A DNA stretch of 64,000 bases from Candidatus Saccharimonadota bacterium (GCA_016187125.1 JACPKF010000009.1:11855-75854); one strand, 5' to 3'; counted from the stretch's first letter, positions 69-64,000 are shown. Numbers and translations: made by a program. The notes: generated by a model from the sequence alone, not told the origin.

Positions 69-1790
69 ATGCTCTATCAACATGGCTTTACAGTGCTGAA
101 AAGGGAGTTGTCACCCGAGCTAGTTTCATCATTTATCCAACAAGCAAGTGCCGAATTATCCCGTAAACACCAAGAAACTGGCCAAGCTGTTTACCAACAA
201 CCATTTATAGAAGCCTTTGAGGCCGCGTTCGCTAAAGAGATCGAGTTTGATAAGGAACTAGGAAAAATTCTTGTAGAAGATTCAGCCGAAGTTGCGGCCT
301 TGCCAGACAATGATGCGGGGGCCCAAAAAGAAGTGACAGCTCCGGCTCCAATTAGCGATGATGATAGGGAGTTTGAAGCTTGGCGAGCAGGCGAGGGTAA
401 CGAGGGGGCCATACCAGAGCCGAGTGATAAATCTAAAGCTGTTGCTTGGGGCGCCGAAACAGAAGAAAATGAAGCCAAAGAACCAGAAAAGTCAGATAAA
501 GAAATCGAATTCGAGCAAGCTTTAGCAGAATGCCAAGATGCGGTTCAACTAAGAACGCTGATTGAGGAGAGAGCTGCAATGATAAAAGCCGAGATCGATC
601 AGCGGAGCATCGACGCCAAAGAGATGATCTATCTAAAAGATAATAACGATGCGCACATATTGAAGACTGCTGAAGCTATGATTACTGCTGGAAATCTTCC
701 GCGTGCTTTAAGCTTGTTAACACAAGAGGGCATCTCAGAGCAACGAAAAGAGGCACTGCTCACCGCCATAGAAAGTCAGTTAGCAGACTCAGCGGCTAGT
801 TGGCTCAGAGGCCGTCATTATTATTATTTGCAAGAAGCGCAATCCGCAATAGATGGAATGCCTTTGCCCGATTCTGATAAGGCACAAATAAGGGCATATT
901 TGGATGCAGATATTTTTAAAATTATTAGCAATGCGGCAAGTAGAGCTAATGAAGGAGATGAAATAGAGAGTGATATCCAAAGTTCTAGGGCACTCGATGC
1001 GTTAGCTTATATTTCAGACCCAGCCTTAGCCGTCAAAATCAAGGAAATCCTCGAGCTTAAAGAACCTCCGGCAATACCCGTCAATATTGAAGAGGATTTG
1101 GTACCCAGTACAATAACAACCATAGAACCCCCGGCTGACGCAAGTATGAAAGAATGGAAGGAATGGTATTTAACAACTCCTGTCGAGAACTTATCTGATA
1201 AGGATTTCGAGCATTATCTTCTAATTAAACTCACTGAAGGAAAACGCATTATTCAAAATGGGTCATTCAGAGCTTATGATGATCTGGGACTTCGGGACAG
1301 AAAGGCGTTTTCGGTTGTTAAGAATATTGAGCGAAAAATCTCTTATAAATCGACCAAAAACCATGACCCTTACAATATATTGAAAAGAGCCTTCAAGAGA
1401 TTAGACAAAAAAGTGCCAAAGGACGAATTAGGGCTGGCTAAAGCATCATTTTGCCCTATTGTTTTAGGGCTAGCAGACTCAATACTTAAACATGCACCAA
1501 AAAGACAGACCCTTGAAATTACCAGCGGAAAAGCTATTCAGCTAATCAATGAGTTTGCTTCGGATGAAGGATCAGCACATATCATGAGAGAAGCACTTGA
1601 TTTAGAGATTTTGATTACGGCTCGTAGAGCCCACCAAAATATGAATTATCCCGGCCAAGATGATACGGGCGGTGATCCTCTAGAAATTGTTAAACATGCC
1701 TCGAGCGAGAGAGTTGCAAAAAGAATGTTGCAAGCGCTAGGAATAAGTCCAGCAGGTACTGAGGGGAGCAATAGTCCAGTCGCTAGATAA
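69..1790 (+). CDS. hypothetical acidic protein, possibly 5'-truncated by the window edge
   Basis: 573-codon ORF, very acidic, no motif I recognise. The frame has no stop between nt 3 and the ATG at 69, so it may start left of the window. Confidence 0.5.
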   Translation: MLYQHGFTVLKRELSPELVSSFIQQASAELSRKHQETGQAVYQQPFIEAFEAAFAKEIEFDKELGKILVEDSAEVAALPDNDAGAQKEVTAPAPISDDDREFEAWRAGEGNEGAIPEPSDKSKAVAWGAETEENEAKEPEKSDKEIEFEQALAECQDAVQLRTLIEERAAMIKAEIDQRSIDAKEMIYLKDNNDAHILKTAEAMITAGNLPRALSLLTQEGISEQRKEALLTAIESQLADSAASWLRGRHYYYLQEAQSAIDGMPLPDSDKAQIRAYLDADIFKIISNAASRANEGDEIESDIQSSRALDALAYISDPALAVKIKEILELKEPPAIPVNIEEDLVPSTITTIEPPADASMKEWKEWYLTTPVENLSDKDFEHYLLIKLTEGKRIIQNGSFRAYDDLGLRDRKAFSVVKNIERKISYKSTKNHDPYNILKRAFKRLDKKVPKDELGLAKASFCPIVLGLADSILKHAPKRQTLEITSGKAIQLINEFASDEGSAHIMREALDLEILITARRAHQNMNYPGQDDTGGDPLEIVKHASSERVAKRMLQALGISPAGTEGSNSPVAR

Positions 1791-2006
1791 GTTCGCTGTG
1801 TTATTAGTCCTCGATTTAGGTGAGTAACCAAGCTTGCAACTTGGTCTAGTTATTAATAATACATATGAATCGAACAGCAATTTTTGCAGCTGAGAATAAT
1901 ACAGTTAAAAATTATGGAAACCGAAGTTGACCACCAAAACGACCTTTTCATTTCGCCCAACAACTAATTTATTCCGACTTTTTTATCTTTCGTTTACTTT
2001 TACTTT

Positions 2007-3252: not shown

Positions 3253-3795
3253 CTATTGGGCACTAAAAAGACCAATTAAAGTATGTTTAGCAAGAATGTG
3301 GCCTTGCATGGCTTTTTGCAGCTGGTCGCGGTTGGTAGCCGGCGGCAAGCTTAAAGTTTTGTCCAGGGCGTGAAGTTCGAACATATAACGATGGGTGCCG
3401 GTACCGGCCGGCGGGCAGGGGCCCATGTAGCCATTTTTGCCGCCGTCGTTAACTCCTTGAATGGCTCCGTCCGGAACCATGTTGACATCAATATTGGCAA
3501 CCGACATCGGCATGTCCCACATTATCCAGTGCACAAAGTCACCAGATACAGCATCGGGATCATGGACAACTAGAGCCAAACTTTTAGCGCTGGCAGGAAT
3601 ACCCACAATATTGAGTGGTGGATTAACATTTTGACCCTTGCAGGTATAAGTCGCAGGGATCGCTTCGCCATCCTTAAAAACCGGACTGCCCAGTCGCAGG
3701 TTAGTTTTGGTTAGATCATTACCGTTACTCATTTGTTTATCTCCTTCACTTTTAGTGCTAATAAATCCCAAAATAATAGTGGCGATAGTAACCAC
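3253..3795 (-). CDS. PEBP/YbhB-family (Raf-kinase-inhibitor-like) protein, membrane-anchored or secreted
   Basis: PEBP signatures (VHDPDA, GPCPPAGTGTHRY) after a hydrophobic N-terminus. Starts at GTG; see the finding on the in-frame TGA just upstream. Confidence 0.85.
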   Translation of the reverse strand: MVTIATIILGFISTKSEGDKQMSNGNDLTKTNLRLGSPVFKDGEAIPATYTCKGQNVNPPLNIVGIPASAKSLALVVHDPDAVSGDFVHWIMWDMPMSVANIDVNMVPDGAIQGVNDGGKNGYMGPCPPAGTGTHRYMFELHALDKTLSLPPATNRDQLQKAMQGHILAKHTLIGLFSAQ

Positions 3796-20504: not shown

Positions 20505-20591
20505 GATTAGTGATTTTTTGATTAACGATTAACGACACGTGTGGTTCTTTAATCCCTAATCCCTAATCCCTAATCGTTCTAATACTAATAG
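20505..20591. repeat. heptamer arrays, including (TAATCCC)x3 straddling the methyltransferase stop codon
   Basis: GATTAGT GATTTTT TGATTAAC GATTAAC ... TAATCCC TAATCCC TAATCCC TAATCGT. The stop (20556-20558) and the last 5 codons lie in the array. Confidence 0.85.
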
Positions 20592-21848
20592 TTCACGAGC
20601 GACGATTTGATCTTCACGAAAATAAATCAATTCGTCGTTTTTAACGTGAACGAAATCTATCCGATTATAGCCCATATCTGTTAAATGGTCAATAACGGGT
20701 AAATGCACAAAACCTTTTTTGTGATAGGTTAAACCTATCACATTTGGGCGCCAGGCTGGCACTGCCAAAGATAGACGTGTACCCTTCGGAATCTGAGCAG
20801 CAATATTACTCAAGAATTTCTTAGTGATGGTGTTAACATCTTGAACTATCTCATTGAGTTTTTGAGGGACTGGCAGCTCACTCAGCGGTCTGCCCAAATA
20901 AAGCTCACTGGCTACAGCGTCGAATTGTTGTTGCCATTTATGATTAGTGGCGTCAGCTTGAAATATCTCGAACCTCGAACCTTGAACGTCGAACCTCGGA
21001 AGCAGCCAATCAAGGTTTGTTTTTGAGAATTCAATCATTCTAGGCTCGATATCGCTGCCAATAGTGTCATACCCCATCAAAAGCGCTTCTTGTAGGATGA
21101 CTCCGGTACCACAAAACGGATCCAAAACACGCAAAGCGCGTGTAGTCTTTAGTCCCAAGTCGCTAGTCGCTAGTTTTTTGACTGCCGACTGCCGACTGCC
21201 GACTGCCGACTCAATCTCGCCGACGGCGAGATTAATTAGTATCTGTGCCAGCTTTGGTGGCAACATCCCCACCCGCGCATCGCGCTTTGGCCGGGCTTGA
21301 TCCCGAGCGGCGTAGGCTTCTATGTCCTGGACAAAAAACGTTTGGGCAAGATATGTTTGGCTACCATTACGAATCGCTAGTAGTTCCCAAGCCCCGCGAC
21401 GGGTAAGTTTATTATGCAAAACTTGAGCGCTGTTTAGCTCAAGCGTCTTATTAGGCACAATTCGAACAGAGCGGCCCTGAGCGCGAATAATCTTTTTGAG
21501 CAATAGAAGATCAGTGTTAAGCTTACTCACGGGCAGTTCCAAACCGTAAAGACTGACGCCCAGCGTAAAGGTGCCCCCCGGTACGTGCTGTAGGTGCCTT
21601 GGGATATTTTCGGTCAGATATTTATATATTTTTTTCCAATCGCTCGCGGGCAATACATTGAGCAATTTAGCAACCTTTAGAGTTCCGCCTAGGCGCTTGA
21701 AATTAATTTCGCCGGCTGGGATATCTAATAAAACGCCGTGTTTAATGGGTTTTATTTGCTCAGCACCATATAGACTCTCAAGCTCAACTAGGCCGAGTGT
21801 CGGCTGACGACCTAAAATACAAACAGACTTGGCTGCAAACTGACTCAT
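20556..21848 (-). CDS. putative SAM-dependent RNA methyltransferase (UPF0020-like core, THUMP-like N-terminus)
   Basis: SAM motif I VLDPFCGTGVILQEA. The family call is weak. Contains in-frame heptamer tracts at 20967-21000 and 21158-21210. Confidence 0.65.
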   Translation of the reverse strand: MSQFAAKSVCILGRQPTLGLVELESLYGAEQIKPIKHGVLLDIPAGEINFKRLGGTLKVAKLLNVLPASDWKKIYKYLTENIPRHLQHVPGGTFTLGVSLYGLELPVSKLNTDLLLLKKIIRAQGRSVRIVPNKTLELNSAQVLHNKLTRRGAWELLAIRNGSQTYLAQTFFVQDIEAYAARDQARPKRDARVGMLPPKLAQILINLAVGEIESAVGSRQSAVKKLATSDLGLKTTRALRVLDPFCGTGVILQEALLMGYDTIGSDIEPRMIEFSKTNLDWLLPRFDVQGSRFEIFQADATNHKWQQQFDAVASELYLGRPLSELPVPQKLNEIVQDVNTITKKFLSNIAAQIPKGTRLSLAVPAWRPNVIGLTYHKKGFVHLPVIDHLTDMGYNRIDFVHVKNDELIYFREDQIVARELLVLERLGIRD

Positions 21849-26125: not shown

Positions 26126-26872
26126 ATGAGGAAAAAACAGACCAAGTCTGGAGTCGAGGGGTCTAGTCAACTGTACGGGCTACTGGCTGCTTTGTCTGAT
26201 GATTTAGCCCTGCCACTACTGCAAATTAAAAGCGTTTTGGAGCTTATTTCCTCAGACAATTTTTCTAAAGTCAGCGCTTTGGCTCACGCTCAAACCATGC
26301 TACTTAGTGCTGATAATGGCTTGCAGCTAATCGAGGCTTACCGCTTGGTGCTTAAGGCCGCCGATCCCGATAGTAGGCAATTTGAGCCGGTGGCCATCGG
26401 TGCCGTATTACAGGCTGTTGCCCATGAGTTGAGTCCATACGCCAAGAAATATAACACTGCTCTTGAGGTGGACATTCAACGCAGTTTAACTCCTGTTTTA
26501 GTTCATCAGCCCAGCCTAGTTGCAGCGATTCAAGTTTTGAGCTCCAGTATAATTCGGGCTCAAGCCGCAACTAGCCAGCAAAAAAACTATAGGTTGTTGC
26601 TGGCAGCTCATCGAGTGGGCGGCAGCGATGTTTCCGCTGGGGTTTTTAGCAGTGTGCAAGGTCTCAGCGATCGAACGTTGCGCACGGCTCGGGCGCTTAT
26701 GGGTAGGGCGCGCCAACCACTGCCCAGTGTTCCGGCTGGTGCCGCCAGTGGCGTACTTATTGCCGACATGCTATGCACTGCTATGTGGCAACCGCTCAGG
26801 GCAGCTGCTCACGGTGGCCTACACGGCTTAGTCACCGCCGTACCGATTAGCAAACAACTCCAATTCGTCTAA
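26126..26872 (+). CDS. degenerate histidine-kinase-like protein (phospho-acceptor His and N/G boxes not conserved)
   Basis: LSDDLALPLL occupies the place of the H-box SHELRTPL, and the ATPase-like region lacks Asn/Gly boxes. GC-rich relative to its neighbours. Confidence 0.5.
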   Translation: MRKKQTKSGVEGSSQLYGLLAALSDDLALPLLQIKSVLELISSDNFSKVSALAHAQTMLLSADNGLQLIEAYRLVLKAADPDSRQFEPVAIGAVLQAVAHELSPYAKKYNTALEVDIQRSLTPVLVHQPSLVAAIQVLSSSIIRAQAATSQQKNYRLLLAAHRVGGSDVSAGVFSSVQGLSDRTLRTARALMGRARQPLPSVPAGAASGVLIADMLCTAMWQPLRAAAHGGLHGLVTAVPISKQLQFV

Positions 26873-33184: not shown

Positions 33185-33871
33185 ATGGACAAATCGAAGC
33201 AGCCGCAAATCTATGCCTTTATTGACAGCCAAAACCTTAATGTCAGCACTCAAAAGTTCGGCTGGAAAATGGATTGGCGTAAATTCCGAGAATTCCTGGC
33301 AGCTAAATACGGCGTCACTAAGGCCTATATGTTCATTGGTTATGTGCCGGAATTTCAAGAAATGTATGAATTTTTGCATGATGCCGGCTTTGCCATTGTG
33401 CTTAAACCGACTTTTGATGTGACTCGACCATACACCGGCACAGGCTCTGCGGGTTTGGATGGAGTGCAAGGCGCAGGCGAGCAGCGGACTGAATCGTATA
33501 TGCAATACGGTGAAGGAGCAGCAAAGCCTGCAACGCCGCAATCCGCCAAAAGCGACAGCGGTGTCGGCGGCTCCGCTGACGAGCAGGCTGGCGCGGCCCG
33601 CAAGCCTGTGAAGGGCAATGTCGATGCCGACTTAGTTCTTTGGACAATGAAGGAAATGAAAAATTATGACAAAGCCGTTATAGTATCGGGCGACGGAGAT
33701 TTTTATAGCTTGATAGAATATTTGGAAAAAGAAAATAAGTTGCTTAAGCTTTTAACGCCATCAATTCATTATTCGGGACTGCTAAAGCCGTTTGAGGCTT
33801 ACATAGAACAACTTGGTCAGTACCGCCGCGAACTCAATTACCGCAGCAAAAAAACCAGTCCCAGAAAGTAG
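33185..33871 (+). CDS. NYN/LabA-like nuclease-domain protein carrying a GC-rich in-frame insertion
   Basis: IYAFIDSQNL, KGNVDADLV and VIVSGDGDF motifs. About 60 extra residues fall between the second and third conserved blocks. Confidence 0.75.
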   Translation: MDKSKQPQIYAFIDSQNLNVSTQKFGWKMDWRKFREFLAAKYGVTKAYMFIGYVPEFQEMYEFLHDAGFAIVLKPTFDVTRPYTGTGSAGLDGVQGAGEQRTESYMQYGEGAAKPATPQSAKSDSGVGGSADEQAGAARKPVKGNVDADLVLWTMKEMKNYDKAVIVSGDGDFYSLIEYLEKENKLLKLLTPSIHYSGLLKPFEAYIEQLGQYRRELNYRSKKTSPRK

Positions 33872-49937: not shown

Positions 49938-51357
49938 TTTTTTCTCTTGCCAACTTATCACTAATGCCGAACCAACCAACGGCGGCGCTAAATAGTGCCA
50001 GGCCAGCGACCGACCACATAGCTACTTGGTAACCGTGATGTGATGCTTGGCGCAGGCTAGGGGACTGTTGGTGCAGGTCCAAAGGCACAGCCGACTTGTC
50101 GGTGGTTGAGCTGGCAAAAATGATCGAAATTATCATTCCAGCGATAGCAATAACGATAAGTCCGCCGATACGGGCGACGGTGTTGTTAAGACCTGAAGCT
50201 ATACCGGCGAATTTAGAAGGCACTGACTTCAAGGCAGTGGTAGTTATGGGTGCAACTATCATAGCTAGGCCCAACGAAAATAAGACTATGCCAAGACTGC
50301 CGCGCAGCCAAATATCGTTTTTTGAATTAATAATCGAAAATAGCAGGCTGCCGGCGGCGATCAAGACCGGCCCAACGGACAGTAGCATTCTGGGGCCATG
50401 TAGATCCGCCAGGCCGCCAAAATAGCGGGCCAGAGCGATCAGGACCAGGCTGGTGGGTACCAGGAACAAGCTGGAGCTAAGCGGTGTCAGGCCCAAGAAC
50501 TGCAGATAAAGCGTGAAATAAATAAAAACGCCGTTCAAGGCTCCATAGAGCAGCAATGTCTCCAGATTCGAAAAACTAAAATTGCGAATTTTGAAAAATT
50601 TGAATGGCAGCATCGGATGCCGGCTCTTTAGCTCTACCGCCACGAAGGCGGCTAAGCTGACTCCACCTATTAGCAGTGTCCACCACAGGCGGCTAAAACC
50701 GGTCTTGGCCCCCTCGACCAGATAGTAGGTCAAAAAACCGAAGCCGGAAGCAATAAGCAGGGAACCGGGTATATCCAGCGGTGTCGGCTCGGCCTCCTTC
50801 TCTTTATCGGGAACAGCCTGCGCCGACCAGTAAATAATAAGAAAGGCCAGGGGCAGATTGATGTAAAAAATATAACGCCAGGAGAGCCACTGGGTCAGGG
50901 CACCGCCAAGCGGCGGCGCTATAACGGTTGAAATACCCGTCAGTGCCGTCCAAAGACCGATGGCTTTGCCGGCGTGATCGCCGTAGACGCTCCTAAGCCA
51001 TGCCAAGCTGTTAGTAGTAACAAAAGCTCCACCTATGCCCTGTAGTACCCTGGCAACTATAATTACGGCTGCATTAGGTGCCAGGCCGGCCAAGACTGAG
51101 GCTAGGGCAAAGCCGATCACTCCATAGTTAAATATTTTTCGGCGGCCGTATCTATCACCTAAAGCGCCGCCGACGAGATATAAAGCGGCTAGCGACAATG
51201 AATAAGACAAAAAGATCCATTGCTCGCCAGCTAAGCCCAGATTTAGGGCTTTTTGCATCGTGGGTAAGGCAACGATCACGGCCGTACCATCAATGAAGGC
51301 TAACGAGGAGCCCAATGCTGTAGCAGCCAGAGTATACTGCCTCTTACTAAGCGCCAT
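49930..51357 (-). CDS. MFS transporter (14-TMS drug:H+ antiporter-like)
   Basis: 475 aa with ~14 TM helices and an MFS motif GALGDRYGRRK. Its stop overlaps the ftsQ stop (convergent). Confidence 0.85.
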   Translation of the reverse strand: MALSKRQYTLAATALGSSLAFIDGTAVIVALPTMQKALNLGLAGEQWIFLSYSLSLAALYLVGGALGDRYGRRKIFNYGVIGFALASVLAGLAPNAAVIIVARVLQGIGGAFVTTNSLAWLRSVYGDHAGKAIGLWTALTGISTVIAPPLGGALTQWLSWRYIFYINLPLAFLIIYWSAQAVPDKEKEAEPTPLDIPGSLLIASGFGFLTYYLVEGAKTGFSRLWWTLLIGGVSLAAFVAVELKSRHPMLPFKFFKIRNFSFSNLETLLLYGALNGVFIYFTLYLQFLGLTPLSSSLFLVPTSLVLIALARYFGGLADLHGPRMLLSVGPVLIAAGSLLFSIINSKNDIWLRGSLGIVLFSLGLAMIVAPITTTALKSVPSKFAGIASGLNNTVARIGGLIVIAIAGMIISIIFASSTTDKSAVPLDLHQQSPSLRQASHHGYQVAMWSVAGLALFSAAVGWFGISDKLAREKIT

Positions 51358-58338: not shown

Positions 58339-59202
58339 TCACTGCAGGGTCCAATGCCCAGCGTCAGCTTTGATGTGGCCATTAATCTCCAGCATGCTCA
58401 GGGCGCTGTTCAGAGCTTGTCCGCTCATGCCGGATCGGGCGGCTAAATCATCCTGGTCATTGACGCCGCCTCTGATGAGATCGAATAAAAGTTGTTCTTC
58501 AGTGGTCCCTTTAAAAACTCTTTTAATGGTTCTGGCTTTAGGCTTAAGATTTAGAGCCAAGAATATATCATCCACATCCCTTACCACCCCTGCTCCGCTG
58601 TTGATTAAATTGTTACAACCTTCGCTCGTCGGGCTGTAAATATTACCGGGCACGGCCATGACAGTCTTGCCCTGCTCTAGCGCGAATCTGGCAGTGTGCA
58701 GACTGCCGCTATTTTTGGCCGCCTCGGTTATAACCAGCACATCGGCTAGTCCGCTGACAATGCGGTTGCGAGCAATAAAATTCTCTTTATAAACCTCAGA
58801 CCCCGGGGGATATTCGCTAACAAGAGCCCCACTACTACTGACGATTTGCTTGGCTAGGTTATGGTGTGCGGCGGGATATATTTTGTCCAGCGGCGCCGGC
58901 AAAACCGCGACAGTACAGCCGCCAACCGATAAGGCCGCGCGGTGAGCAGTGGCGTCTATCCCAAACGCTAAACCGCTGATAATTACCACTCCAGCCCTAG
59001 CTAGCTCACCGGCTAGCCGCTCAGTAACTTGTTTGCCATAAGCAGAAGCCTTACGGCTGCCAACAATAGCTACTTTTGGCTTACTGATAAACTCTTGGGG
59101 TGCAATACCTGTCCAAAAAAGCCAGGCCGGTGGCGAATGAATATGAAGTAGAAGCTCAGGATAATCAGGTTCATTAAGCTTAAGGCTATTGACTTTGCTC
59201 AT
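58339..59202 (-). CDS. dprA: DNA processing protein DprA
   Basis: Rossmann-like DprA core (VAIVGSRKAS, GLAFGIDATAHRAAL) and a C-terminal winged-helix-like tail. Confidence 0.88.
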   Translation of the reverse strand: MSKVNSLKLNEPDYPELLLHIHSPPAWLFWTGIAPQEFISKPKVAIVGSRKASAYGKQVTERLAGELARAGVVIISGLAFGIDATAHRAALSVGGCTVAVLPAPLDKIYPAAHHNLAKQIVSSSGALVSEYPPGSEVYKENFIARNRIVSGLADVLVITEAAKNSGSLHTARFALEQGKTVMAVPGNIYSPTSEGCNNLINSGAGVVRDVDDIFLALNLKPKARTIKRVFKGTTEEQLLFDLIRGGVNDQDDLAARSGMSGQALNSALSMLEINGHIKADAGHWTLQ

Positions 59203-59218
59203 ACAATATTAAAAAGTA

Positions 59219-59247
59219 TTGACATAATGACACTTTTTTGCTAATGT
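59219..59247 (+). promoter_or_regulatory. sigma70-like promoter pointing into the 59.25-59.88 kb noncoding region
   Basis: TTGACA-17 nt-TAATGT. Confidence 0.45.
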
Positions 59248-59376
59248 TGCAACTCATAAGCGTTATTTAATGCTTATGTACCTTATACCCCCAAATTTCC
59301 GGTTGTTCGCCAAGGCGGACGACGGAATAAAATGTTTAAGATTCTAAGGTAAGTTGATACCCTCCACTTGCCCTAG

Positions 59377-59460
59377 TCCCACCCAATTTTTTGGTTTTAA
59401 CTTGAGTATAGTAACCAAATTTAATTAATACAATTGTTTAAGCTTAAAAATTGGGTGGGA
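59377..59460. repeat. CCCACCCAATTT-family element with 15-bp perfect arms
   Basis: TCCCACCCAATTTTT-54 nt-AAAAATTGGGTGGGA. The interior shares ACTTGAGTA with the module at 42076-42133. Confidence 0.85.
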
Positions 59461-59689
59461 AATCTTAAACAACTTATTCCCTTTAACTCCTCGCCCGCAA
59501 AAATTTCTTTGAAATTTCGGCGGGTCCTCAACGTGGGTAGACATGCGAGCTCACGCTCGCGTTCCATCGGGCTTGCCTGGTGGACGGCGCTAGACCTTAG
59601 CTTTTCGCGGGTTATTAGATTGCTTTGTCGATGGTGGGGTTGAAGGGTGTAAATTGGGCTTGATTCGCCAGCTGGCGAATCGAGCCCGC

Positions 59690-59737
59690 AATGAACCTCC
59701 AGCGGTGCCCACCCCCTCTGGAGGTTCATTGTTTTCT
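59690..59737 (+). terminator. terminator-like hairpin
   Basis: AATGAACCTCCAG-15 nt-CTGGAGGTTCATT (13-bp perfect stem) followed by GTTTTCT. Confidence 0.55.
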
Positions 59738-59881
59738 GGTGCCCACCTTCCCGTTATTTTCTGCTGAAAATACGGTCAGGCCCGCCTCGGTGCCGTCGCA
59801 CCTGCGGTTTCCGAACTGCCGCCGGCAGTTCTCACCCTCTGGAGGCTCTTCGTAAGGTTGGTTTTCTACTAGGAAGTTAGC

Positions 59882-59910
59882 TTGACAGTAATTAAATTAA
59901 GTTATACAAT
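59882..59910 (+). promoter_or_regulatory. near-consensus sigma70 promoter; ATG 7 nt after the -10
   Basis: TTGACA-17 nt-TACAAT-ATTAGAC-ATG(59918). Confidence 0.6.
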
Positions 59911-59917
59911 ATTAGAC

Positions 59918-60079
59918 ATGTTTAGTAAGGAAGAGTTGGCAAACATGCCTCTCGAATTTTTCGAGAATGACGGATTCTCAGATCCAGGGCTTATAAACGA
60001 CATCAAAATATTGGCTATGGATCAGGTTGAGCTTGTTTTTGTCGACCCTAACGAGTTGCCCAGAATCAACTTAAAATAG
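59918..60079 (+). CDS. 53-aa acidic small protein, probably leaderless
   Basis: Encodes MFSKEELANMPLEFFENDGFSDPG... The ORF starts at the predicted transcription start. Its 3' end overlaps the pth stop by 14 nt (convergent). Confidence 0.4.
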   Translation: MFSKEELANMPLEFFENDGFSDPGLINDIKILAMDQVELVFVDPNELPRINLK

Positions 60080-62822: not shown

Positions 62823-64000
62823 TTATTTTTTGTCGATGAACCAGAATTTAAGGGGGGTGCCGTTTAAGGGCCAAACAGCCCTGAAACTCTTTTCAAGATA
62901 GCGTTTGTAGCTCCAGTGCAGGAATTTAGTCTTTGAGCCAAAGACTTTAAAGCTGGGCATCCCGGAGTTGTCTTCTTGAACAATGTAGTTGAGTTTTGGC
63001 AACTTACCGCGCAAACCGGCCGGTGGGTGCTGGTTGACTGTATGTTGCAGCCAACGGTTTAGCTCCGGAGTTTTAAATCGCAGCCCGCGGCTCTTGGCAA
63101 TTTCCAGAACTAGGTCAAAGATTTTAGCTACATTTTGGCCGGTGGTTGCGCTGGTGAAGATCAGCGGTGCCCAGGGCACAAAGTTGAAACTCTCAGCAAT
63201 TTGGGCTGCCAAATGGTCTTTAGTAAAGCTATCTTTTTCGACCTGGTCCCATTTACTGACGACCAATATTAGGCCATTGCCGGCATCTTTTATCAGTCCG
63301 GCAATTTTTTGGTCCAGCTGAACATTAAGCTCCCGGCCGTCCATAATCAGCAGGCTAATATCTGATTGCTCTATGGCAGCCAGCGCCCGCAGGATGCTGA
63401 ATTGTTCCACGCCTCGCTCTATTTTACCGCTGCGCCGAATACCGGCGGTATCCATAAGTTCAATCTCTTTTGCTTTAAAACGGACTATCGCCCGATTAAC
63501 GTCCCTTGTGGTTCCAGCTTTCTCCGCCACGATGGCCTGCCCCAGTGGAATCGGAGTTTCAAAAACTCCGGCCCGCCCGAGGCGGGCATCCCACGGGGCT
63601 TGTTGTTTTTTAGCCAAAGCGTTAAACAGACTGGATTTGCCGACGTTAGGCCGGCCCAGCAGTGATAAATGAATCCGTGATGAATCACTGCCGATTTTCG
63701 CCTGCGGCAGTTGAGTAGCGATGGCTGACAGGAGGTCGTCTAGGCCTCTTTTTTGAGTCGCGGATGTAGGCATAATTTGTTTTATGCCCAGCTTTCGCCA
63801 TCCATCCAAGTCACGTTTTAGATTCTTATCTATTTTGTTGACAACCAAGATCACCGGCTTCCGGCTTTTTAGGGCAAGCTTGGCTACCCGTCGGTCTTCC
63901 TCGGTCGGTGGCACGTCGGCCTCAACTACAACTACAATTAAAGTAGCGCTATCGGCCGCCTGTTTGATCTGGTCTTGGATACTGAGCTCAAATTCATCCT
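62823..64000 (-). CDS. der: ribosome-biogenesis GTPase Der/EngA, N-terminus beyond the window
   Basis: The frame stays open to nt 64000. Second GTPase domain (GRPNVGKSS, DTAG, SKWD) plus a KH-like C-terminus. A 21-aa insertion lies between G1 and G2. Confidence 0.9.
   Translation of the reverse strand, partial: DEFELSIQDQIKQAADSATLIVVVVEADVPPTEEDRRVAKLALKSRKPVILVVNKIDKNLKRDLDGWRKLGIKQIMPTSATQKRGLDDLLSAIATQLPQAKIGSDSSRIHLSLLGRPNVGKSSLFNALAKKQQAPWDARLGRAGVFETPIPLGQAIVAEKAGTTRDVNRAIVRFKAKEIELMDTAGIRRSGKIERGVEQFSILRALAAIEQSDISLLIMDGRELNVQLDQKIAGLIKDAGNGLILVVSKWDQVEKDSFTKDHLAAQIAESFNFVPWAPLIFTSATTGQNVAKIFDLVLEIAKSRGLRFKTPELNRWLQHTVNQHPPAGLRGKLPKLNYIVQEDNSGMPSFKVFGSKTKFLHWSYKRYLEKSFRAVWPLNGTPLKFWFIDKK

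Follow-up and report, generated by a model that had tools for sequence, protein, structure and literature searches.

The Rickettsia palindromic elements (RPEs; Ogata et al. 2000 Science, 2002 Genome Res, reviewed in PMC10969869) are in-frame inserts of numerous unrelated genes in a reduced genome. Bacterial transposable elements of the miniature inverted-repeat type (MITEs) whose transcripts form hairpins, such as Correia/NEMIS, ERIC, BOX and RUP, are small, non-autonomous, multi-copy sequences that fold as RNA and are sometimes intragenic with open frames (PMC10969869). The subject of the present analysis is a GC-rich insert in a gene for an NYN-domain protein, located in a 64,000-nucleotide (nt) stretch from a Candidatus Saccharimonadota bacterium (GCA_016187125.1 JACPKF010000009.1:11855-75854), hereinafter the window, in which positions are counted from the first letter. 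Genomes of Saccharibacteria and other members of the candidate phyla radiation (CPR) measure about 1 Mb and are thought to be poor in mobile elements, and their proteins are known for unexplained insertions. The insert, which occupies positions 33431-33601, probably represents a single copy of a non-autonomous mobile element that is dispersed in Candidatus Saccharibacteria and whose translation into a disordered loop is tolerated; a rough probability of 0.6 can be assigned to this explanation. The comparisons described below establish a multi-copy family with a covarying structure, in-frame occupancy of unrelated genes, presence and absence in nearly identical alleles, and a predicted disordered loop. 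The relevant features, all on the plus strand, are the following.

33185..33871, plus strand: host gene, NYN-domain (LabA/DUF88-type), 228 amino acids (aa), from the list of open reading frames (ORFs) and Pfam PF01936.

33431..33601, plus strand: stretch foreign to the insert-free alleles, 57 codons, Y83-R139, delimited by protein and codon alignments.

33448..33602, plus strand: family-conserved repeat core, delimited by covariance model R1 and nhmmer.

33439..33453, plus strand: left arm of the closing helix, CACAGGCTCTGCGGG; 6 nt on the inner side (33448-33453) belong to helix P1, and the outer 9 nt are specific to the window copy.

33597..33610, plus strand: right arm of the closing helix, CCCGCAAGCCTGTG; 33597-33602 belong to P1, and 33602-33610 are the host codons K140-P141-V142.

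33454..33550, plus strand: arm A, helices P2-P8 of the RNAalifold consensus; in the apical hairpin, 33493-33499 pair with 33505-33511.

33552..33594, plus strand: arm B; in P9, 33552-33559 pair with 33587-33594, and in the P10/P11 hairpin, 33564-33571 pair with 33575-33582.

Example of the element-encoded peptide, from the window NYN protein: TESYMQYGEGAAKPATPQSAK.

The host ORF encodes a protein (P0001) that is 100% identical to MBI2589348.1 (NCBI, Candidatus Saccharibacteria bacterium) and matches the Pfam profile for NYN, PF01936, with an E-value of 1.7e-13, in two stretches split by the insert. The gene order NUDIX-NYN-phosphoribosyltransferase is common to the window and to locus L008, where the NYN allele is empty. 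A sequence-only reading of the window had singled out positions 33439-33610 as a GC-rich segment inserted in frame in this gene and bounded by inverted repeats, which is borne out by the GC content of the segment (0.64, compared to 0.453 for the window) and by the finding that the richest 172-nt stretch of the entire 64 kb begins at 33435. The two ends, CACAGGCTCTGCGGG (33439-33453) and CCCGCAAGCCTGTG (33597-33610), are indeed reverse complements: 14 positions match and a single C is bulged. When folded as RNA, the plus strand of 33425-33625 reaches -98.8 kcal/mol (z = -5.1, a value that 0 of 200 shuffles equal) and the minus strand -84.1 kcal/mol (z = -3.0); given this fold and the duplex between the two arms, which is stronger than cross-copy pairings, the pairing of the arms goes beyond chance. 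The coordinates of the inverted repeats stand, but the limits of the segment have to be moved: the last 9 nt (33602-33610, AAG CCT GTG) are the host codons K140-P141-V142, the foreign stretch is 33431-33601, and the family core is 33448-33602. This core matches covariance model R1 along model positions 1-155 with 166.9 bits and an E-value of 8.6e-39, and the nhmmer E-value is 4.3e-41.

The core recurs in many genes and intergenic spacers; the counts that follow refer to the collected loci and not to copy number per genome. Five GTDB species genomes, all of them Saccharibacteria, contain a 32-nt pattern taken from the conserved 5' portion of the NYN inserts. None of the matches falls in an NYN gene; the hosts are Der (twice), TsaB, a YchF-like GTPase and a Mur ligase. 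A second pattern matched 25 metagenome contigs, of which 18 are genuine according to a profile search, the remaining 7 being chance matches by the profile search and the covariance model. In 36 loci, nhmmer detects 43 copies and the covariance model 41, and in 9 of these loci two copies lie within 0.5-2 kb. The in-frame hosts confirmed by Pfam are TsaB, TsaE, Der, Mur_ligase_C, UvrA, UvrD/PcrA, DnaG (in two lineages), TruB, Exo_endo_phos/Xth, HAD and two methyltransferases; a further in-frame host is the YchF-like GTPase. An exhaustive search of 1.84 billion cluster representatives with a profile of the encoded peptide, used in place of a word-indexed protein search that was too insensitive (only 6 matches with the 58-aa profile), yields 232 matches at E<=1e-3 and 84 at E<=1e-10. 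Most of the 232 are stand-alone ORFs of 50-70 aa, because intergenic copies get annotated as genes, and about 35 are embedded in longer proteins, including an RluD-like synthase, FolD, PrmC, a DNA methylase, malic enzyme, PilM, Dus, DHFR, GATase, a Y-family polymerase fragment and a YgjP-like protein. Altogether, there are about 26 Pfam-defined in-frame host families, which are unrelated and share no common pathway. One protein with helix-hairpin-helix (HhH) repeats (P0247, 696 aa, six matched stretches, E-value 2e-8) is probably a spurious match and was treated as such, given that LDGvQGaGe resembles the HhH motif. A search of IMG/VR with a 17-nt core pattern retrieved 19 loci, all of which score below 20 bits with the covariance model and are not copies, so that there is no evidence for a phage vector.

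Occupied and empty orthologs are seen also for UvrD, Xth, TsaB, TsaE and a methyltransferase, where an identity of 50-70% allows the site to be located only approximately; in these other hosts, the insertion site aligns with variable linkers. Several individual loci can be mentioned in this connection. The methyltransferase gene of the window (20514-20930, minus strand) is empty at the site (AVPAWRPNVIGLTYHKKGFVHLPVID), and its ortholog in L028 (50% identity) carries the element in frame. The Der/EngA GTPase gene of the window (63435-63998, minus strand) is cut off by the end of the window, some 15 codons downstream of the site that is occupied in L012 and L014. In L032, a single Xth gene (779-1912, minus strand) contains two copies, located at the N-terminus and in an internal loop, respectively; the internal site is occupied in both L032 and L037, whereas in the Xth gene of L038 it is empty and no copy is aligned at the N-terminal site. 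Half copies are found at either end of an 8-kb block in L014 (1-79 and 7920-8000). Among the intergenic copies, three are tightly enclosed by co-oriented genes (10036-10190 in L015, between rnc and rpsP; 9994-10148 in L016, between the genes for a CDP-alcohol phosphatidyltransferase and a PHP protein; 10012-10166 in L017, between yqeY and adk), and gene callers predict hypothetical proteins of 53-65 aa from them.

Within the NYN family itself, alignment of orthologs shows that the segment is patchily distributed. Among the 120 best homologs (median length 193.5 aa), a homologous insert is present in six, the window protein included; each carrier is nested among empty relatives, and the nearest relative is never another carrier. 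When the loop is left out, the window protein shares 97% identity with P0003 and 92% with P0004 and P0005, all three of which are empty and have a short linker rich in Pro, Glu and Lys at the insert site; similarly, P0002 is 98% identical outside the loop to the insert-free P0022. An ordinary shared loop would be expected to recur in distant relatives with unremarkable composition and no terminal repeats; instead, the distant carriers hold the same GC-rich, structure-forming element and the closest orthologs are empty. The 57 insert codons (33431-33601) stand where the empty alleles (P0003/L007, P0005/L008, P0022/L009) have a linker of about 19 codons, and the host codons AAR CCN GTN (K-P-V) are present in the empty alleles L007, L008 and L009 as well. 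At the left junction, Tyr comes next in the window protein, P0002, P0007 and P0010, preceded by Pro in three of these and by Ser in P0010. The identity at the three codon positions is.65/.66/.57 for the six NYN inserts and.73/.82/.42 for the NYN flanks, and identical residues are encoded by the identical codon in 67% of cases in the insert versus 44% in the flanks. Because identity is flat across codon positions and the use of the same codon is high, the conserved entity is the nucleotide sequence rather than the peptide.

Some other NYN lineages (P0031, P0034, P0038, P0064, P0068, P0070) have loops of 40-55 aa at the same position, with a motif, E.[FY]..[FY]GE.A, that resembles the element peptide. 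The long loops of P0031, P0034, P0064, P0068 and P0070 were considered as decayed copies, and the covariance model, with filters off, finds none in L062, which contains the NYN gene of P0034 (3260-3400). The same locus has a perfect GC palindrome, CCTGCCGGCAGG (3330-3341), that encodes PAGR, and PAGRQ recurs in P0038 and PAGRP in P0068. Loops and palindromes of this type may represent a decayed copy or a second, small palindromic insert.

The structure of the element was derived from an alignment of 34 distinct copies (A4), with the RNAalifold consensus mapped onto the window. The consensus fold is Y-shaped and consists of the closing helix P1, arm A (P2-P8) and arm B (P9-P11). Compensatory changes are observed at 45 of the 51 pairs and in every one of the 11 helices; 93.9% of the alignment cells form standard pairs, compared to 30-44% after a shift of the partners by 1-3 columns, the score for covariation amounts to 0.598 versus 0.07-0.10, and 0 of 500 shuffles reach any of these measures. 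There are 125 G.U pairs versus 31 A.C mismatches (79 versus 31 without two mainly-wobble columns), and because G.U pairs outnumber A.C mismatches, the fold is a property of the plus strand. Two U.G positions, at alignment columns 13/111 and 51/71, are conserved. Three intergenic copies that are antisense to their neighbors keep the G.U excess (13 versus 2, a small sample of copies), and the bias may act on RNA or on single-stranded DNA (ssDNA). The copy in L005, with 29 of 51 Watson-Crick pairs, 80 bits and no closing helix left, is a decayed one. A search of the whole window against Rfam 15 at gathering thresholds finds no family, the hits at E<=10 within 33300-33750 are all sub-threshold chance matches, and ARAGORN reports nothing.

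The complete copies are all closed by a helix (about 13 base pairs (bp) on average by a greedy count, range 0-25 bp). Its inner 6 bp conform to a loose consensus, TTCGCR/YGCGAA, that drifts by compensatory change, and the outer 6-17 bp are unrelated between copies and complementary within each copy. The duplexes formed by a copy's own arms have energies of -13 to -40 kcal/mol, compared to means of -9 to -21 kcal/mol for pairings of a left arm with the right arms of other copies; for the window copy, the respective values are -38.8 and -18.9, the best cross-copy pairing being -31.7 kcal/mol. Because the arms are copy-specific, the terminal inverted repeats (TIRs) of the sequence-only reading are the private closing helix of the window copy and not transposon ends. 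One of the outer arms overlaps conserved host codons in NYN (K-P-V), UvrD (R-R-Y) and Der (D-F, presumably conserved host sequence in view of the conserved G3 region), and the other arm has no counterpart in empty alleles. This arrangement is not universal, given that in Xth both arms lie within the inserted stretch. No conserved motif is seen in the sequences flanking the copies.

Quasi-palindrome template switching is a known mutational process in which one arm of an imperfect hairpin is copied onto the other. It is plausible that the arms arise or grow by this process, which would keep them complementary, extend them into the flanks and overwrite dispensable linker codons. A bolder proposal, and one that we put forward as speculation with the odds clearly against it, is that the closing helices are the footprint of a new insertion chemistry, in which a hairpin or snap-back intermediate, or guide-like pairing, would copy the target flank in inverted form (an "inverted target-site duplication"), with the folded plus strand, as RNA or ssDNA, being the mobile intermediate. 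If true, this would place the element in a new class of structure-guided mobile elements in CPR bacteria, beyond an analog of the RPEs.

Conservation of this kind also fits the main rival of the mobile element hypothesis, namely that the repeat is a host-beneficial, cis-acting RNA module (a site of entry for RNase III or another ribonuclease, a determinant of mRNA stability, a translation pausing signal or a protein platform) that has been recruited to housekeeping mRNAs and operon spacers, translation being a side effect. Such a module would explain the strong covariation in all 11 helices, the G.U excess on the sense strand, the sense orientation of all in-gene copies, and the complementarity of the closing helices even where one arm is host coding sequence, as well as the retention of the structure (152-157 bits) in the Xth copies of L032 and L037, whose hosts are only about 60% identical. 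It is hard to reconcile with the patchy presence of the repeat, which is lacking in alleles 97-98% identical to occupied ones and occurs in only 6 of the 120 NYN homologs, with host genes that share no pathway, or with the at least three intergenic copies that are antisense to their neighbors and still show the G.U excess. Furthermore, old copies decay, as in L005, and no common promoter or terminator context is seen. A host function is thus judged rather unlikely, and the element appears to be selfish and mobile rather than host-beneficial.

Another possibility is that there is little or no present transposition and that occupied loops spread as allele cassettes, by natural transformation and homologous recombination through the conserved gene flanks. 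Cultivated Saccharibacteria are reportedly naturally transformable, the same NYN site is occupied in six lineages with Tyr at the left junction in four, the divergence of the inserts is below that of the host genes, and the linker was replaced, not interrupted, all of which would be natural outcomes of cassette exchange. Nevertheless, de novo insertion must have taken place at some time to give approximately 26 unrelated host families and numerous intergenic sites, the YchF-like alleles of L010 and P0124, although about 91% identical, carry copies with quite different arms, and no tract of recombination with an L001-like sequence is evident, by inspection, beside the window insert. Cassette exchange as the principal mode of spread therefore seems improbable, more so than a host function.

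The way in which the copies occupy reading frames is compatible with translation of the segment. At 15 of the 16 in-gene sites, the element has the sense orientation and occupies one common frame; only the half copy of L014 (1-79) deviates, being in another frame within an ORF for a TylF-like methyltransferase. The in-gene copies are all 3n in length and free of frame interruptions. Of the 34 copies, 29 are open in the canonical frame, which encodes the most hydrophilic peptide (grand average of hydropathy, GRAVY, -0.85), uncharged and with 0.9% Cys; an antisense frame is open in 27 of the 34, is hydrophobic (+0.41) with 9% Cys, and is never used. Intergenic copies are found in either orientation, with stops in the canonical frame in 7 of 16. 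Internal frame switches via compensating indels are seen in some copies (YGEGAAQ versus TSKEQSQ), with the DNA still alignable, which implies that the peptide itself is not under selection. In the AlphaFold2 model of the window protein, residues 86-144, between the strand 70-74 and the helix 146-157, have a predicted local distance difference test (pLDDT) score below 50 and no secondary structure, and the NYN core is confidently predicted, in agreement with the tolerated surface loop proposed by the sequence-only reading. The segment thus appears to be translated as a disordered loop, to judge from these sequence-based predictions. Inteins are recognized by Hint-domain splicing blocks within a folded domain of at least about 130 aa. 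The insert is 57 aa long, is predicted to be disordered, and the protein has no Pfam match other than NYN, so that it does not qualify as an intein.

The alternative raised by the sequence-only reading, an RNA-level intervening sequence, is not supported. In such a model, the closing helix would join the junctions, and the segment would be excised from the mRNA through self-splicing, or through cleavage at the helix and ligation, to give a protein without the loop. A long helix does join the borders and includes flanking exon-like sequence, and the sense-strand structure is conserved. Yet no intron or ribozyme model of Rfam is matched (the best intron-type match is a group II fragment with 17.5 bits versus a threshold of 34, mostly outside the element), and intergenic copies occur in both orientations. 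Moreover, the in-gene copies are open and 3n long while 7 of the 16 intergenic ones contain stops, and a single hydrophilic frame is used though the antisense frame is equally open; such frame filters make sense only if the segment is translated. Excision from the RNA is therefore considered very unlikely.

In favor of an ordinary, lineage-specific low-complexity expansion of the NYN loop, or of an assembly artifact, it could be said that the length of the KPT-KGN loop is variable throughout the NYN homologs (178-237 aa). This reading is refuted by independent assemblies (NCBI, ENA, JGI, Logan), in which dozens of unrelated genes and spacers share the 155-nt sequence and its fold.

Several observations weigh against a mobile element. 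The window contains a single copy, no second one being found within the 64 kb by blastn, tblastn or the covariance model. No transposase or other mobilizing gene was identified, although no search aimed at a transposase was made, and no split or enlarged copy that could represent an autonomous relative was seen in the collected loci with nhmmer or the covariance model. There is no sign of a target-site duplication (TSD), direct repeats flanking the helix being present in 1 of 32 cases at k=2 (2 expected) and in 0 of 32 at k=3-5, and no family-wide TIR beyond the weak 6-bp inner consensus; because both hallmarks are lacking, classical cut-and-paste transposition is not indicated. The strong covariation and the closing helices that are intact in in-gene copies could reflect a benefit of the fold to the host. 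Certain sites are occupied repeatedly in divergent lineages (six for NYN; two each for Xth, DnaG, Der, TsaB, PrmC and the YchF-like GTPase), and such recurrent sites could be ancient insertions kept by selection or alleles spread by homologous recombination instead of products of repeated transposition. The comparison of the window with L001 speaks for mobility, in that third-position identity is 0.75 in the insert, similar to the values of the two genes against their own empty sisters (0.73 and 0.77), and 0.46 in the flanks; the structure imposes a constraint that confounds this lower divergence of the insert. Finally, the case for translation is built on open reading frames.

On balance, the proposal that a TIR-bounded element landed in a coding sequence and is tolerated as a loop survives in a modified form. 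The element is found in many genes and spacers, NYN alleles 97-98% identical to occupied ones are empty, the in-gene copies keep the frame, and AlphaFold2 predicts a disordered loop at 86-144; the bounding repeats, however, are not TIRs of the transposon type, because their sequence varies by copy and the outer right arm is made of host codons, and the insert replaced a linker instead of being simply added. Under this hypothesis, the element would consist of a GC-rich core of about 155 nt, the plus strand of which folds as a Y, enclosed by a copy-specific closing helix of some 4-25 bp, and copies would spread between genomic sites and between lineages. Survival within a gene would require a permissive linker or loop, insertion on the sense strand, and the one open frame that is hydrophilic, uncharged and poor in Cys. 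The surviving in-gene copies would then be read as a disordered loop, here NYN residues 83-139, the peptide having no function of its own. What is conserved would be the nucleic acid fold, presumably because a folded single strand, RNA or ssDNA, is recognized by the mobilizing machinery.

Elsewhere in the window, two GC-rich islands, 26574-26863 and 50332-50518, reach a GC content of 0.60 or more in 172-nt windows. Both lack inverted repeats of at least 12 nt as well as a match to the covariance model and so are not copies of the element. The region 59203-60065, adjoining a DprA-like gene (58339-59202, minus strand), is a stretch of about 850 nt without an ORF of at least 80 aa, save a doubtful antisense one of 102 aa. 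It has inverted repeats in a nested arrangement (59324-59343 with 59461-59480; 59377-59401 with 59436-59460) along with two strong hairpins (59656-59687 and 59689-59731), is an outlier in minimum free energy for its own GC content, and has no Rfam, tRNA or tmRNA match. This region may be an unrecognized RNA gene or another repeat.

The family shows that one source of the insertions in CPR proteins is a structured repeat that colonizes genes essential to replication, repair, translation and cell-wall synthesis, where it is apparently just read along with the host sequence. For genome annotation, the effects are that Pfam matches are inflated and split and that hundreds of spurious "hypothetical proteins" of 50-70 aa are predicted, and presence or absence of the element could be used as a strain-typing marker. 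The covarying fold together with the copy-specific helices points to a mechanism of mobilization or maintenance beyond known transposon chemistry, and this mechanism is testable since some Saccharibacteria can be grown and transformed.

The GC clusters of yeast mitochondria and the byp sequences, the latter reportedly 27-55 nt long and skipped by the ribosome, are similarly GC-rich, hairpin-forming mobile inserts in the coding genes of an AT-richer genome, but the present element is 155-190 nt long, is open in frame and lacks a take-off/landing codon signature. The REP/REPIN-RAYT systems and the IS200/IS605-derived PATE elements rely on recognition of hairpins in one strand, involve neither TIRs nor TSDs and tolerate G.T-type wobble, all of which is compatible with the plus-strand G.U bias of the element. 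These systems, however, are essentially intergenic, with conserved palindromes of 20-40 nt and fixed tetranucleotide targets, whereas the element has no conserved flanking motif; no Y1 transposase was identified, and none was searched for. The resemblance to MITEs consists in small size (a 155-nt core, about 170-200 nt with the arms), the lack of a transposase gene, the sole ORF being the read-through frame, and many dispersed copies (43 in 36 loci; 232 peptide-bearing cluster representatives). MITEs, however, have TIRs conserved across the family, TSDs and a parent insertion sequence, and the element has copy-specific arms, no TSD and no known parent; because both the family-wide TIRs and the TSDs fail, it is not classified as a MITE. 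The palindromic amphipathic repeat coding elements (PARCELs; PMC2996958) are likewise palindromic coding repeats that are horizontally distributed among microbes with small genomes; they are arranged in tandem within genes as amphipathic modules of surface proteins, unlike the single, dispersed insert that forms a disordered, hydrophilic loop.

The literature searched, coverage of which was incomplete, contained no account of an element of this kind for Saccharibacteria, TM7, Patescibacteria or the CPR, and the family is apparently new as far as could be found; in-frame palindromic selfish DNA is already known, and it is the phylum, the covarying Y-shaped fold and the copy-specific helices that seem to be new. 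The traits by which the Saccharibacteria element may differ from the RPEs include the high GC content in a 45% GC genome, the two-armed Y-shaped fold, extensive covariation, the sense-strand G.U bias, the copy-specific closing helix that incorporates host codons, and replacement of a linker. The hosts are also different, Alphaproteobacteria in one case and Saccharibacteria of the CPR in the other, and no homology between the two is implied. RPEs and the element are both repeats of about 150 bp with stable hairpins, scattered in the small genome of a host-dependent bacterium, and both are found in intergenic regions as well as in frame in unrelated housekeeping genes (about 26 Pfam-defined host families for the element). 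As with RPEs, the peptide is conserved only via the DNA and the insertion is compatible with the fold of the protein, which for the element was assessed for the window NYN protein. The element can thus be regarded as the likely analog of the RPEs in Saccharibacteria.

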